This document shows positions 2,500 to 11,997 of a stretch of DNA of 25,404 bases, piece after piece. The DNA is from a virus (Duplodnaviria; Heunggongvirae; Uroviricota; Caudoviricetes): the IMG/VR virus record IMGVR_UViG_2534681674_000010, one strand, 5' to 3'. The first letter of the stretch is position 1; each line of letters opens with the position of its first letter. The translations under genes and the position numbers were made by a program. The notes under the pieces are model-generated. The model was not told where the DNA came from. It did no database searches and saw nothing but the letters and a program-made list of their open reading frames with translations.

Positions 2500-4446
2500 T
2501 CATGCCGCAGTGTCTGTGCTGTTCACTTCCACCGCAATGCTGTCTATCAGTACCGGGTAAGTCGCACCTCTGGTAATGTCTGTCACATGCAGTTTATCCG
2601 CCGCAAAGGCACTGACCGGTGACTGCGTCAGCGTGAACGGTGTGCCATCCTGACCATCAATAACCGGCGTCACCTGCAGGCTGTTATTCCCGGCAAAGCG
2701 GAAAGCCAGCGTATGCCATTCGTTATCAAATGCGCCAAAGGTTCCCAGTTTCAGGTTGTTTGTCGCCACTTTCGCATTGTGGTACATCACATTCAGGTCT
2801 TTTGCATCTGTCTGGATGTAGAACGCTGCCAGCAGGTTATTCCCCCCATCTCCGGTCAGGGCAACGCCCTGTGGCAGTGAAGATACCGGCCAGTAAAACG
2901 CCATAACATACTGGTTCGCAGCCAGCGCTCCCGAAACCTTAAAGCGGCAGCGAATCTGCCCCCCTTTCTGTAACAGAGCCGCACCGTTGCCCGCGGCGTA
3001 CTCCAGCACCCAGCTGCTTTTACCGGCTTCCTTGGTCAGCTTCACTGCCTTACCTCCGGTTCCCTCCGCATCGCTGACCACTTCTGCCCTGCCGCCACTG
3101 GCTGACCATCCCTGTACTTTCAGGCTTCCCTCTGACTCGCTGGCAAGGTAAGAGAGCAGTGTTGTGACGCCTGTGGCTTCTGCACCGGAAGGCGATGACG
3201 GGCGCACCTCTGATACTGTCGATGATGCCCCCGCGTTTAGCGCCACTCCTCCCGCATGGCGCAAAATCGCCGTTGCCAGACGGTCGGAAATAATCCCGCG
3301 GCGAGCCCATGAACTGAAATGGCTCGCCCTGTCCTGTGACGTCCAGGTGGCTGAGCTGTCACGCCATTTCGAACCGTAATATCCGATACCCGGAATGTCC
3401 GGGTCTTCTTCCGGTTTGTTCGTCGGCACATTCACCCCGTTCTCATCCGTCATGAACGGTACGAAATGGATATTCTTTTCCGTTTTGTTTTTGTAGCTGC
3501 CGTACACCGTCTGGTACGTGGATTCGTTCTTCTGCTTCCAGAAATACGTCGTATCTCCACATATCCAGGGAACACCGCCAGCAGAGCCACCGACGCACTG
3601 ACCTGCCATATCCGCCAGGTCTGCACGGAATTTATCAACCAGCGCACCAAACTGTGCTGCGTGATTTACCGGCGTACCGCCAAAATCAAATTCCCCCTGC
3701 ATCCACACCACGGCAAGCAGCACATTTTTCGGGTTCTTCTTCAGTGCTGCTTTTGTTCGACCGATAAGGTGCTTATACAGCGGCTTGTCCACACCCCAGC
3801 GGGTTGAATTCTCCGAGGCACCACTCGCGTCACTGTATGTGCCATCGGCTCCGGTGGTGAACGCTGAACCACCACGACAGCACGGAACCAGCAGAATGCC
3901 CGCATTCGCCGGTATAAACGGCAGCAGTTTTTTGGCGATATGCAGCCCTTGCCCCACGGTTCCGTACTGCCCCTTTGACAGGTCCGCTTTCGGATGGTTA
4001 AGGCGGCTCATGTCCTGCACATCATGCAGACAATGGTCCGCCGGAATGATGTCGTTATATTTGCATGCTGCACCGCCCGGTGTCACCGTACTGCGGCGCG
4101 CCAGCTGCTTAATACGCGGGTCCGGACGGTCATATGTCTCCGGCAGCGGAAGGCCTTCACCATATGCCATGCTGTTTGACTGCCCCGCCAGAACCACAAC
4201 AAAGTAATACTCCGGGTCTCTGGTGGCGCTGATTACTGCACCTTCTCCACCTGTCGGCTTCACCACAACAGGTGTGCTCACATCACCTTCTGCGACAATC
4301 GCCTGAATAAGTGCTGCGCCATCATCCGTATACGAAGAAAACGGCCCACCATATGGTTGCCATCCTTCACGAATTTTTTGCGCAAGTGCATCAGCAAGGT
4401 CTGACGGCGACGCCGCCCTGACAACATCATAATGTTTAAATGTCAT
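2500..4446 (-). CDS. nanS-p: NanS-p-like prophage sialate O-acetylesterase (648 aa)
   Basis: Intact ORF; N-terminus MTFKHYDVVRAASPSDLADALAQKIREGW and size match recalled EHEC prophage NanS-p/Z1466-type esterases; position between Q region and lysis genes as in Stx phages. Confidence 0.75.
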   Translation of the reverse strand: MTFKHYDVVRAASPSDLADALAQKIREGWQPYGGPFSSYTDDGAALIQAIVAEGDVSTPVVVKPTGGEGAVISATRDPEYYFVVVLAGQSNSMAYGEGLPLPETYDRPDPRIKQLARRSTVTPGGAACKYNDIIPADHCLHDVQDMSRLNHPKADLSKGQYGTVGQGLHIAKKLLPFIPANAGILLVPCCRGGSAFTTGADGTYSDASGASENSTRWGVDKPLYKHLIGRTKAALKKNPKNVLLAVVWMQGEFDFGGTPVNHAAQFGALVDKFRADLADMAGQCVGGSAGGVPWICGDTTYFWKQKNESTYQTVYGSYKNKTEKNIHFVPFMTDENGVNVPTNKPEEDPDIPGIGYYGSKWRDSSATWTSQDRASHFSSWARRGIISDRLATAILRHAGGVALNAGASSTVSEVRPSSPSGAEATGVTTLLSYLASESEGSLKVQGWSASGGRAEVVSDAEGTGGKAVKLTKEAGKSSWVLEYAAGNGAALLQKGGQIRCRFKVSGALAANQYVMAFYWPVSSLPQGVALTGDGGNNLLAAFYIQTDAKDLNVMYHNAKVATNNLKLGTFGAFDNEWHTLAFRFAGNNSLQVTPVIDGQDGTPFTLTQSPVSAFAADKLHVTDITRGATYPVLIDSIAVEVNSTDTAA

Positions 4447-4534: not shown

Positions 4535-4630
4535 AAGAAATGAAAAAAGGCCACGCAGTTGCGCAGCCTGATAAACCCTGGTTAAAATCCACACGATAAC
4601 AACACAACAATATCAGTATCTCATGCTATT

Positions 4631-4657
4631 GCCCGAACCCATTCGGGCATTTTTTTA
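4631..4657 (+). terminator. intrinsic terminator (plus orientation)
   Basis: GCCCGAA-ccc-a-TTCGGGC followed by TTTTTTT. Confidence 0.45.
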
Positions 4658-4662
4658 CCCAT

Positions 4663-4686
4663 AAAAAAGCCCCTCCGGAGAGGGGC
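4663..4686 (-). terminator. intrinsic terminator (minus orientation), back-to-back with the previous one
   Basis: GCCCCTC-cgga-GAGGGGC; on minus strand followed by TTTTTTAT. Confidence 0.5.
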
Positions 4687-4924
4687 ATGTTTGCATGCAC
4701 ATTCTTTTTCTTGCATGGTGCCGGGTGCCTCCCGGTGAATTCAGTACCAGCACCTGAATCCGCGATTACCCCATATACCTGGTTGCTGATTGCCCCTCCG
4801 CACAGGGGGATTCACCATGCCAGTTTCTTTTAACAAACTCCCCGCAAACCAGACAACAGTCAACCGCCTGAATTGTGAGACATTTAAAAAAAGGCCCGCA
4901 AAAGCGAGCCAGGGAAAATAAGTG

Positions 4925-5000
4925 TGGCGCGTTGTACTGGATTCGAACCAGCGACCTGGCGACTATGCGTCGCTCGCTCTCACCACTGAGCTAAAGGGCC
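4925..5000 (-). tRNA. tRNA-like gene, CAU anticodon (Ile2/Met-like), probably degenerate
   Basis: Minus strand GGCCCTTTAGCTCAGTGGTGAGAGC...GCTGGTTCGAATCCAGT...GCGCCA; D, anticodon and T arms fold, T-loop TTCGAAT, 5' half resembles recalled tRNA-Ile2; 3' acceptor strand ACAACGC cannot pair with 5' GGCCCTT and position 33 is G. Confidence 0.5.
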
Positions 5001-10488: not shown

Positions 10489-10644
10489 TTACTCCTCAGG
10501 TTCGTAAGCTGTGAAGACAGCGACCTCCGTCTGGCCGGTTCGGATTCGTACCTCGCAGAGGTCTTTCCTCGTTACCAGTGCCGTCACTATGACGGTTAAA
10601 CAGATGACAATCAGGGCGATTAACATCGCCTTTTGCTGCTTCAT
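10489..10644 (-). CDS. hok: Hok/Gef-family type I toxin
   Basis: MKQQKAMLIALIVICLTVIVTALVTRKDLCEVRIRTGQTEVAVFTAYEPEE matches recalled HokD/RelF; AAGGAG RBS; GC hairpin GGCGAGGGA-tttc-TCCCTCGCC in 3' UTR (10459-10480). Confidence 0.85.
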   Translation of the reverse strand: MKQQKAMLIALIVICLTVIVTALVTRKDLCEVRIRTGQTEVAVFTAYEPEE

Positions 10645-10878
10645 AGCCTGCTTCTCCTTGCCTTTCGGCACGTAAGAGGCTAACCTACATGTGCAAAGCA
10701 TGAAATTGGCCTCAGATTAATGTTAAGCGTCCTGCAAGACGCGTAATGTTAACTGGGGCTTTTCTCTGTCTGCCTTACGGCGGCATGCCCGAGGCAGACA
10801 GCCTCAAGCACCCGCAGCAATTCTACTTAACTCTTCTTTCCCCGCAAATCATTTTATCCCCGATGGTAATGTTCTCCC

Positions 10879-10915: not shown

Positions 10916-11464
10916 TTAAAGCTCCATTAATTTTCCGGCCAGTTCATCTCGTGGCATTACCAGCCATCCGCGCGATTTAAGCAAAGCCAGGGCTTCTTCA
11001 ACCGTCACCAGCTGGCCAGGCGCATAACTTCGGATGAAGGCGGTTTTATCGTCACGGATCGCCAGGTGAAAATCGATATTCATTTTTCCCATAGCCCGCT
11101 CTTTCTCGTACTGGTTGAAGTAACTGTCTTCGAGTTTTTCGAATACTTCCCACGCCTGATCGGTTTCGAGCATTTTTGCATGACGGGCTGCTCCGCGTTC
11201 TGTCCAGAGGATGAGGGAACGAACGTTACGGGCGATTTTCACAGACCCACTTAAAGATGGTCTGTGCTTCAATTCACGTAACTCTTCACCTTCGATCTTA
11301 AAAAAGTGTTTTCCAATCTGAAAGCGCCCTACATTCCTTGCAAAGTTGTTTTGAATATTCTTAACGTCTGCACCATAAAGATGCGCCAACAACTCAGTGG
11401 TAATTACAGGGATTTGGTTGTAAGTAATAGCAACAAGAGTTTCAACAGAGATTTGAGTAGTCAT
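10916..11464 (-). CDS. phage antirepressor-like protein (ORF6N/KilA-N-type N-terminal domain)
   Basis: 182 aa; N-terminal TYNQIPVITTELLAHLYGADVKNIQNNFARNVGRFQIGKHFFKIEGEELRELK pattern. Confidence 0.5.
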   Translation of the reverse strand: MTTQISVETLVAITYNQIPVITTELLAHLYGADVKNIQNNFARNVGRFQIGKHFFKIEGEELRELKHRPSLSGSVKIARNVRSLILWTERGAARHAKMLETDQAWEVFEKLEDSYFNQYEKERAMGKMNIDFHLAIRDDKTAFIRSYAPGQLVTVEEALALLKSRGWLVMPRDELAGKLMEL

Positions 11465-11624
11465 AACGACACCCTAGGGTGGTTTCTAAACTATCACCAC
11501 CGTCAGGTCTCAATCGTCGGGTGGTGAGACGTACAGGGTTGAGACTACCGGGAAACCAACCGGCGAGCTTTTCAGCTCCCCTATACGCCCCACCATAATT
11601 CAGATGTGCGCGTGCATACGACAA

Positions 11625-11707
11625 TAAAAAACACGCTCGCGGCGTGTGTCTGTCGCGGTTTCTATCCGGGGTCTCAATCCCGACGGTCAACTCGACCGTG
11701 AGGTGAA
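11625..11707 (-). ncRNA. candidate small RNA (~80 nt) with its own promoter and terminator
   Basis: Minus strand TTGACG-18nt-TATATT (plus 11712-11741), then CGGUCGAGUUGACCG hairpin, then terminator ACACGC-cgcga-GCGTGT + TTTTTTATT; region 11465-11811 has no convincing ORF. Confidence 0.3.
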
Positions 11708-11811
11708 TATAGCCCCGGATTAGTAATTACGTCAACCCCAGCGGCAAATCGAATACACCACCAGCGCTACCGCCATTGCAACTCCTACCGTTACGAATGC
11801 CTCAGGCCAGG

Positions 11812-11997
11812 TCATCGTAAACTATCCTCAGCGCCAATCAGTCCGTTTCGCTTCAGGCAGTCCATCGCTTTATACGGTAATTTGGCTGACAGGCGAAAAT
11901 CCCCCCGCAGCATCAGGCTTATTCCCTTATCCCGGGCTTTCGCTCTGACCGCTGCCTCGCTACGACCAATCAGACTGCCGATACTTTCGACTGTCAT
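11812..11997 (-). CDS. hypothetical small protein (61 aa)
   Basis: ORF MTVESIGSLIGRSEAAVRAKARDKGISL...; weak RBS. Confidence 0.35.
   Translation of the reverse strand: MTVESIGSLIGRSEAAVRAKARDKGISLMLRGDFRLSAKLPYKAMDCLKRNGLIGAEDSLR

Follow-up and report, generated by a model that had tools for sequence, protein, structure and literature searches.

The coding gap at positions 11465-11811 of the DNA stretch analysed here (25,404 nucleotides, referred to as the window) is, with a probability of about 0.8, an RNA immunity module of the P1 immI and Gifsy-1 isrK type that controls the antirepressor gene downstream of it. The candidate small RNA that a sequence-only reading had placed in the gap is Salmonella IsrK in its E. 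coli prophage version. It falls in known families with published mechanisms and was therefore already known, not a new kind of element. The earlier observation is confirmed and its interpretation partly supported: the unit is not self-contained, as had been proposed, and forms the 5' end of the antirepressor operon, in which read-through would yield a C4 RNA and the ant mRNA. As read-through would make both, the choice that had been posed between a small RNA and a 5' UTR comes out as both.

Organization and distribution of the locus

All genes around the gap lie on the minus strand, in the order O-like, P (PF06992), a DUF1627 protein, a 61-aa ORF, a 27-codon ORF, the gap, the ORF6N gene and hokD/sok. 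Within the gap, a sigma-70 promoter (11735-11706) is followed by the IsrK-like small RNA that doubles as the a1/b1 leader (11699-11623), the C4-type antisense RNA (11600-11517) and the antirepressor leader with the C4 targets (11516-11470). The antirepressor gene (ant) follows at 11464-10916. The IsrK start lies 235 nt and the C4 start 136 nt upstream of ant; both isrK and C4 matches are above their gathering cut-offs, and their spacing to ant is as in Salmonella. The 182-aa product of the gene contains an ORF6N domain (Pfam, E = 3.7e-19) and matches PHROG 2379 'anti-repressor' over its full length (E = 4.5e-81).

When 118 loci with relatives of the antirepressor were gathered (38 from genomes and 80 from viral contigs), the same RNA leader was found upstream of the antirepressor relative in nearly all of them. 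In the genome loci, including a Salmonella locus (L012), isrK and C4 were found at window-like distances from the ant start, and a leader profile found the module in almost all of the 80 viral loci. The arrangement had been regarded as unusual. It is not: of 5426 complete E. coli genomes, 1357 (about 25%) have the leader, at up to five places per genome, and isrK (twice) and C4 are among the Rfam RNAs of EDL933 (PMC5331693). Moreover, near-identical modules occur in many Stx1- and Stx2-converting phages, beside genes annotated as antirepressor. RefSeq has no RNA annotated at the identical locus of O157:H7 PV15-279. The prophage in the window may be cryptic.

In some of the more distant genome loci (L003, L006, L007, L013-L015, L019, L023, L025, L027, L032 and L036), sRNA-Xcc1 (RF02221) was found in place of C4 at the same position, which suggests that Rfam has two names for one kind of antisense regulator.

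The IsrK-like RNA

A minus-strand promoter, TTGACG-18 nt-TATATT, had been placed at 11712-11741. It is present, and only its coordinates were off, by about 6 nt: the -35 hexamer TTGACG lies at 11735-11730 and, after the 18-nt spacer, the -10 hexamer TATATT at 11711-11706. The promoter matches the consensus at 10 of 12 positions, and TTGAC and TATAnT are invariant columns among 48 distinct homologous modules. Transcription would start at A11699. With +1 set 7 nt after the -10 element, Gifsy-1-type sequences (the L072 group) reproduce every numbered nucleotide of the published mutants (C18, G28, G31, A107, AUG119-121, C159, C162 and G173).

The Rfam isrK model (RF01394) matched 11699-11626 on the minus strand over 77/77 model positions, with 52.4 bits against a gathering cut-off of 50. 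The isrK and C4 matches had Rfam E values of about 1e-9 to 1e-12 (8.9e-09 for isrK over the whole window). The isrK homologues score 62-81 bits, and the score in the window is barely over the cut-off owing to a hairpin 1 loop that is 3 nt shorter than that of the other modules. The hairpin and the second GC-rich element that had been reported were both found, as hairpin 1 (ACGGUC-GAGUU-GACCGU, 11699-11683, minus strand) and hairpin 2 (CGGG-AUUGAGAC-CCCG, 11682-11667, minus strand; GGTCTCAATC in the plus-strand reading). The loop of hairpin 2 carries the a1 core UUGAGAC (11677-11671), and the linker after it carries b1, AGAAACCGC (11663-11655). The intrinsic terminator was also located as described, with the stem-loop ACACGC-CGCGA-GCGUGU at 11647-11631 and a U-run to about 11623. 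Pairing across the 48 modules amounts to 99.7% for hairpin 1, where 6 of 7 pairs have changed on both sides, to 100% for hairpin 2 and to 79.8% for the terminator, with compensating stems that vary in a part of the alignment that is gappy. The proposal of a small RNA with its own promoter and terminator therefore holds for an RNA of about 75 nt that scores above the Rfam isrK cut-off and whose Salmonella homologue is a detected sRNA (PMC4825925).

A second Rfam family, c4-a1b1 (RF03163), reached 26.2 bits at 11712-11663, under its gathering cut-off of 46.7 bits, and membership of the window in this family was dropped. That cut-off is passed by the homologues L001, L005, L009 and L010 (47-52 bits) and by P1 (51 bits). 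The c4-a1b1 model overlaps hairpins 1 and 2 of isrK, and both Rfam families therefore describe the same element.

Statistics of the gap taken by themselves were unremarkable. The IsrK fold alone had z = -1.46, the 10-mer GGTCTCAATC occurred twice against 1.31 expected (40 of 100 shuffles did equally well), and the counts of promoters and terminators equalled the shuffle expectation. Motif statistics as the sole proof were thus no better than chance and did not carry the case without the homologues; it is the Rfam matches and the covariation that lift these features beyond chance.

The promoter spacer contains AUCCGGGG (11713-11720), whose complement CCCCGGAU lies at the 3' side of hairpin 2 (11664-11671, minus strand). 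In the 48 modules this helix is 89.5% paired, with both sides conserved and little covariation; the signal is real and mostly one of conservation, and it was set aside as covariation evidence and kept as a side note. In P1 (L120, 18211-18218 and 18261-18268), UUCAGGCU and AGCCUGAA stand at the same places, with both partners altered at 4 of 8 positions. Such a helix could form only in transcripts from upstream starts (the early operon, or P2c4 in P1), in which it would compete with hairpin 2.

The C4-type RNA and its pairing sites

Downstream of the terminator lies a C4 RNA that the sequence-only reading missed. The Rfam C4 model (RF01695) matched 11600-11517 on the minus strand with 70.5 bits against a gathering cut-off of 45. 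The segment has a minimum free energy of -44.2 kcal/mol (z = -5.86), and its MFE structure is the Rfam three-helix fold, with a closing stem of 11595-11579 with 11538-11522, P2 at 11578-11565 and P3 at 11564-11547. By analogy with the ends of P1 c4, the mature RNA is predicted to span about 11594-11520. The loop of P3 is b' (UUGGUUUC, 11559-11552), the junction after P3 holds a' (GUCUCAA, 11545-11539), and the 3' strand of C4 is UCACCACC (11527-11520).

In the ant leader, a2 (UUGAGAC, 11513-11507) begins 4 nt past the C4 match. It is followed by GGUGGUGA (11501-11494), which pairs with the C4 3' strand UCACCACC, and by b2 (AGAAACCAC, 11487-11479), whose end is 14 nt before the ant ATG and 3 nt before the Shine-Dalgarno sequence (AGGGUG, 11475-11470), which lies directly 3' of b2. 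In many homologues b2 includes the Shine-Dalgarno sequence, whereas in the window it abuts this sequence and does not cover it; in nearly all modules b2 is located at the ant ribosome binding site. The a' sequence is complementary to both a1 in the loop of IsrK hairpin 2 and a2 in the ant leader, and b' is complementary to both b1 in the IsrK linker and b2 in the ant leader. The boxes of IsrK and C4 are arranged for one continuous duplex, with an uncorrected duplex energy of -52 kcal/mol.

These boxes account for the motif TTGAGAC/GTCTCAA, which had been reported to recur four times and had been taken for a protein-binding site or a duplicated RNA module. Three copies are exact (plus-strand GTCTCAA at 11507 and 11671, TTGAGAC at 11539), and they are a1, a' and a2, the complementary boxes of a C4-type antisense system. 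The fourth, at 11524, is the one-mismatch form GTGAGAC. On the RNA this is GUCUCAC in the C4 closing stem, and since it is constant in modules with other a-cores, its likeness to a' is coincidental.

Two other assignments were tried and rejected. The first choice for b' and b2 was UCACCACC and GGUGGUGA; comparison with the P1 annotation identified the P3 loop as the real b'. The second was a pairing predicted in the window leader between a2 and the ant Shine-Dalgarno sequence; in homologues the Shine-Dalgarno region does not follow the changes of the a-core.

The complementarity of UCACCACC with GGUGGUGA, a sequence between a2 and b2 that mimics the 5' strand of C4 itself, is a third one beside those of the a and b boxes. 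In L045 and L062 its three parts have changed together (GGCGG, UCGCC and GGUGGCGA), and the P1 equivalents are CCUGCCACC and GGUAGCAGG. It may lengthen the duplex once the loops have made contact, or allow the precursor to fold in another way.

Covariation of the pairing partners

A covariance search in related phages had been suggested, and in 48 modules the pairing partners were found to change together. In the alignment of these distinct homologous modules (A2), with 500 shuffles and slid pairings as controls, the intramolecular helices were 97.0% paired with 22 pairs changed on both sides, compared to 37-46% for slid pairings. The a1:a' duplex (14 pairs) was 99.7% paired with 86 compensatory cells (slid, 20-49%), and a':a2 together with UCACCACC:GGUGGUGA was 96.0% paired with 76 compensatory cells (slid, 26-53%). 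None of the 500 shuffles did as well in any of the three comparisons. Within C4, the closing stem, P2 and P3 were 99.8%, 99.2% and 97.5% paired, respectively, and 14 pairs had changed on both sides.

The a-core falls into at least nine classes among the 48 modules (GAGAC, GGCGU, GGUCU, CGAAC, GGAAC, UGCAC, CUCAC, AGCCU and CUGGCAU), each changed in all three places, a1, a' and a2. The b' loop of P3 falls into 20 classes. The b' duplex had a mean energy of -9.5 kcal/mol with its own b1 and -9.8 kcal/mol with its own b2, compared to -5.0 kcal/mol with non-cognate partners, and among all 20 targets the own one ranked first in 15 cases for b1 and in 13 for b2. These results show that at this locus family membership and RNA structures are accompanied by three-way covariation of all the pairing partners.

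The upstream flank of the window, from the end of the 27-codon ORF into TTGACG, is also found in L044, L048, L057 and L062, joined there to modules of other specificities, which indicates that the cassette is exchanged between otherwise similar prophages. In Mixta mediterraneensis (L009), two complete isrK-C4-ant modules stand in tandem about 1 kb apart (2210-2550 and 3214-3555), with different a-cores (GGAAC and UGCAC) and the same b loop, GUCCUUUUCAG. This pair is a natural test of whether one matching box suffices for cross-repression.

Proposed mechanism

The sigma-70 promoter would fire at about 11699, and most transcripts would end at the 11647-11623 terminator and give the IsrK-like RNA of about 75 nt, with a1 in a hairpin loop followed by b1. 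Transcripts that read through would carry the C4-type RNA and the ant mRNA. C4 would probably be cut out by RNase P, as in P1; the 5' end that this enzyme is presumed to make, between AU and GGUGGGG, and the 3' end at CCACC are conserved and match the annotated ends of P1 c4. C4 would then use a' and b' to bind a2 and b2 of the ant leader and, since b2 abuts the Shine-Dalgarno sequence, translation of the antirepressor would be blocked and the prophage repressor would stay active. Because IsrK carries the same two target boxes, it would compete for C4 and relieve the block, and a higher ratio of IsrK to C4 would release ant translation and shift the prophage towards induction. The most likely reading is thus that C4 blocks antirepressor translation and that the short IsrK is a relieving decoy. 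Judged by its position, the terminator may also stop early transcripts that come from the replication genes and are not antiterminated. Expression at this locus, the sign of the regulation and the repressor that Ant targets are presumed by analogy with Salmonella and P1, where the sRNA, read-through, pairing of a1 with a', ant activation by IsrK and C4-mediated repression have been shown. Binding of Hfq is known only for the Salmonella IsrK (PMC4825925).

Control could instead be transcriptional, as in P4: the C4-like RNA would act on nascent a1/b1 and a2/b2 and enforce termination at the IsrK terminator or by Rho, and ant expression would be set mainly by premature termination. In P1, C4 action also leads to Rho-dependent loss of ant transcription, and a1/b1 is immediately 5' of the intrinsic terminator. 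The Gifsy-1 data bear on this in both directions. There, the short form of IsrK, an experimentally detected sRNA, is made by termination at the corresponding hairpin, part of the transcripts read through into anrP, and the read-through mRNA is translationally silent (PMC4825925). Over-expression of IsrK raised a transcriptional fusion 8-fold, and the authors liken IsrK only to P4 SeqA/CI, which they name as its structural homologue (PMC4825925). However, IsrK in trans lifted an anrP translational fusion more than 100-fold, far above the 8-fold transcriptional effect, and constitutive STnc1160 (the C4 region) did not suppress or reduce IsrK toxicity (PMC4825925), a result that also does not fit a simple titration model. 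The location of b2 at the ant ribosome binding site in nearly all modules is what a translational block predicts. Premature termination is rather unlikely to be the main control, and it would be compatible with the C4 block on ant translation, not exclusive of it.

Closer to the sequence-only reading is a free-standing, Hfq-dependent sRNA that acts in trans on host mRNAs, like AgvB or DicF, and to which the antirepressor is incidental. The Rfam family name ('isrK Hfq binding RNA'), the RNA's own promoter and terminator with a U-tail, and the host targets of the other prophage sRNAs in the window are in its favour. It is nevertheless very improbable: unlike a host-directed seed, every variable position of the loop and linker co-varies in cis with C4 and the ant leader, the at least nine a-cores and 20 b-loops leave no constant seed, and the antirepressor gene always accompanies the module.

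Reading frames in and near the gap

The gap had been described as free of protein-like ORFs. This holds for 11465-11731, where there is no conserved ORF, and fails for 11732-11815, which contains a 27-codon ORF. A coding reading of the gap was rejected, as neither an 82-aa ORF with a TTG start (11442-11690) nor a 28-codon frame is conserved. This frame is the counterpart of Gifsy-1 'orf45' (11596-11510, minus strand). It starts with an ATG at 11596, at the 5' end of C4, and ends at a TGA (11512-11510) within a2, 48 nt before the ant ATG; the TGA is a product of the GAGAC a-core. The 45-codon frame that ends in ATGA on ant was found in only 6 of the 48 distinct modules, all of the Gifsy-1 type. 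Of the remaining modules, 33 have a stop at scattered positions 15-104 nt before the ant ATG, and 9 have a frame that extends past this ATG out of frame. The counterpart is probably not a conserved coding sequence, and the comparison of frames indicates that coupling to a leader ORF is not a conserved part of the module.

In Gifsy-1, activation has been attributed by the authors to translation of orf45 coupled to anrP (PMC4825925). The corresponding model for the window, in which ribosomes on the ORF from 11596 would unfold the structure and pass translation on to ant by coupling, can draw on the conserved ATG with a purine-rich stretch upstream of it and on the 5- to 7-fold loss of IsrK-dependent anrP expression after mutation of the first orf45 AUG or insertion of a stop (PMC4825925), but it is hardly credible here, since the frame stops in a2 and AUGA coupling to ant is impossible, so that this part of the Gifsy-1 mechanism is not transferable, the conserved AUGGUGG is accounted for by pairing with the C4 3' strand within the C4 stem, and Gifsy-1 itself keeps 20-fold activation without the AUGs (PMC4825925).

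The 27-codon ORF (11815-11732, minus strand; MTWPEAFVTVGVAMAVALVVYSICRWG) is hydrophobic and had no family match. Its start and the stop of the 61-aa ORF, which RefSeq gives as a pseudogene fragment, overlap as ATGA, and its own TGA falls inside the -35 hexamer of the IsrK promoter.

Implications and other RNAs of the prophage

It is somewhat more likely than not that IsrK sRNAs generally serve as the a1/b1 decoy arm of C4-type immunity modules, with Gifsy-1 'orf45'/STnc1160 being a C4 RNA and not a conserved coding gene. If so, two short boxes, with at least nine a-cores and 20 b-loops, would form a combinatorial code of heteroimmunity, and up to five modules per E. coli genome would gate antirepressors independently, or with cross-talk where boxes match. 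The stop in a2 of the window variant would mark leader-ORF coupling as a lineage-specific addition. Since the module would gate the antirepressor, it would be one switch able to induce lambdoid prophages of enterohaemorrhagic E. coli by a route independent of RecA cleavage of the repressor, and its presence in Stx1- and Stx2-converting phages would tie it to toxin release.

Rfam also identified, above the cut-offs, AgvB (anti-GcvB; 4594-4655, plus strand; 96.5 bits, identical to the consensus), STnc100 (4657-4849, minus strand; 144.5 bits), DicF (16628-16679, plus strand; 76.7 bits) and hok/sok (10639-10813, minus strand), the last of which adjoins the antirepressor gene. A weak, partial Rfam tRNA match was obtained at about 4925-4995 on the minus strand (33.9 bits, model positions 7-64). 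RefSeq has a tRNA-Met at the corresponding place in PV15-279, and ARAGORN found no tRNA in the whole window.

Comparison with known systems

In P4 immunity, as is proposed for the window, a small RNA processed from the leader of an operon pairs with complements upstream and downstream of it in the same transcript. The P4 CI RNA (seqA/seqC) acts by premature transcription termination of replication genes, in contrast to control at an antirepressor ribosome binding site, and no P4 family was recovered in Rfam scans of the window.

The P1/P7 immI region has the order P1c4/P2c4 - a1 b1 - c4 - a2 b2 - icd - ant1/2 (Citron and Schuster 1990; NC_005856 annotation). P1 c4 has the same fold as the C4 of the window, with a' after P3 and b' in the P3 loop. 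In both, targets lie on both sides of c4, b2 is at the ribosome binding site of the next cistron (10-18 nt before icd in the annotated P1 genome), and the gene under control encodes an antirepressor. Scores of 51 bits with c4-a1b1 and 35.1 bits with isrK were obtained for the P1 leader, which has a hairpin and U-run before c4. The window differs in having no icd between C4 and ant, as the 52 nt from the C4 match to the ant ATG leave no room for it; C4 would thus act directly on the ant ribosome binding site. The antirepressor (ORF6N, 182 aa) belongs to a different family from that of P1, no C1 operator or second annotated promoter was evident in the window by sequence comparison with P1, and the element is in a lambdoid prophage whereas that of P1 is in a plasmid prophage.

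The closest system is isrK-orf45(STnc1160)-anrP of Gifsy-1 (Hershko-Shalev et al. 2016, PMC4825925), which has the same order and spacing of promoter, hairpins 1 and 2, terminator, C4-like segment, leader and ORF6N-type antirepressor. The window shares its synteny with both the Salmonella locus L012 and the Gifsy-1-type L072 group. In the Salmonella locus L012, IsrK begins 240 nt and C4 137 nt before ant, compared to 235 and 136 nt in the window, hok/sok is downstream of the antirepressor in both, and the Ant proteins of the window and Salmonella are 52-61% identical. The two modules differ in the a-core (GAGAC in the window, GGCGU in Gifsy-1), in the b-loop (UUGGUUUC and UCGGUGAU, respectively), in the loop of hairpin 1, which is 3 nt shorter in the window, in the leader frame (28 codons with its stop in a2, compared to 45 codons with AUGA on anrP) and in position, after the replication genes in the window and after a Q-like gene in Gifsy-1. 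The compensatory Gifsy-1 mutants G28:C162 and G31:C159 (Table 1, PMC4825925) map exactly onto a1:a'; 'helix b-I' would therefore correspond to the a1/b1:a'/b' duplex, and orf45/STnc1160 to the C4 RNA. IsrK and C4 are given as separate RNAs in a 2025 review and in a paper on APSE phage, they were handled as separate systems in the open literature that was searched, and in Rfam isrK is not part of the C4 clan. The present comparison adds annotation, in that IsrK, c4-a1b1, STnc1160/orf45 and P1 C4 are joined by one co-varying set of base pairs, and it also adds the size of the specificity repertoire and the non-conservation of orf45.
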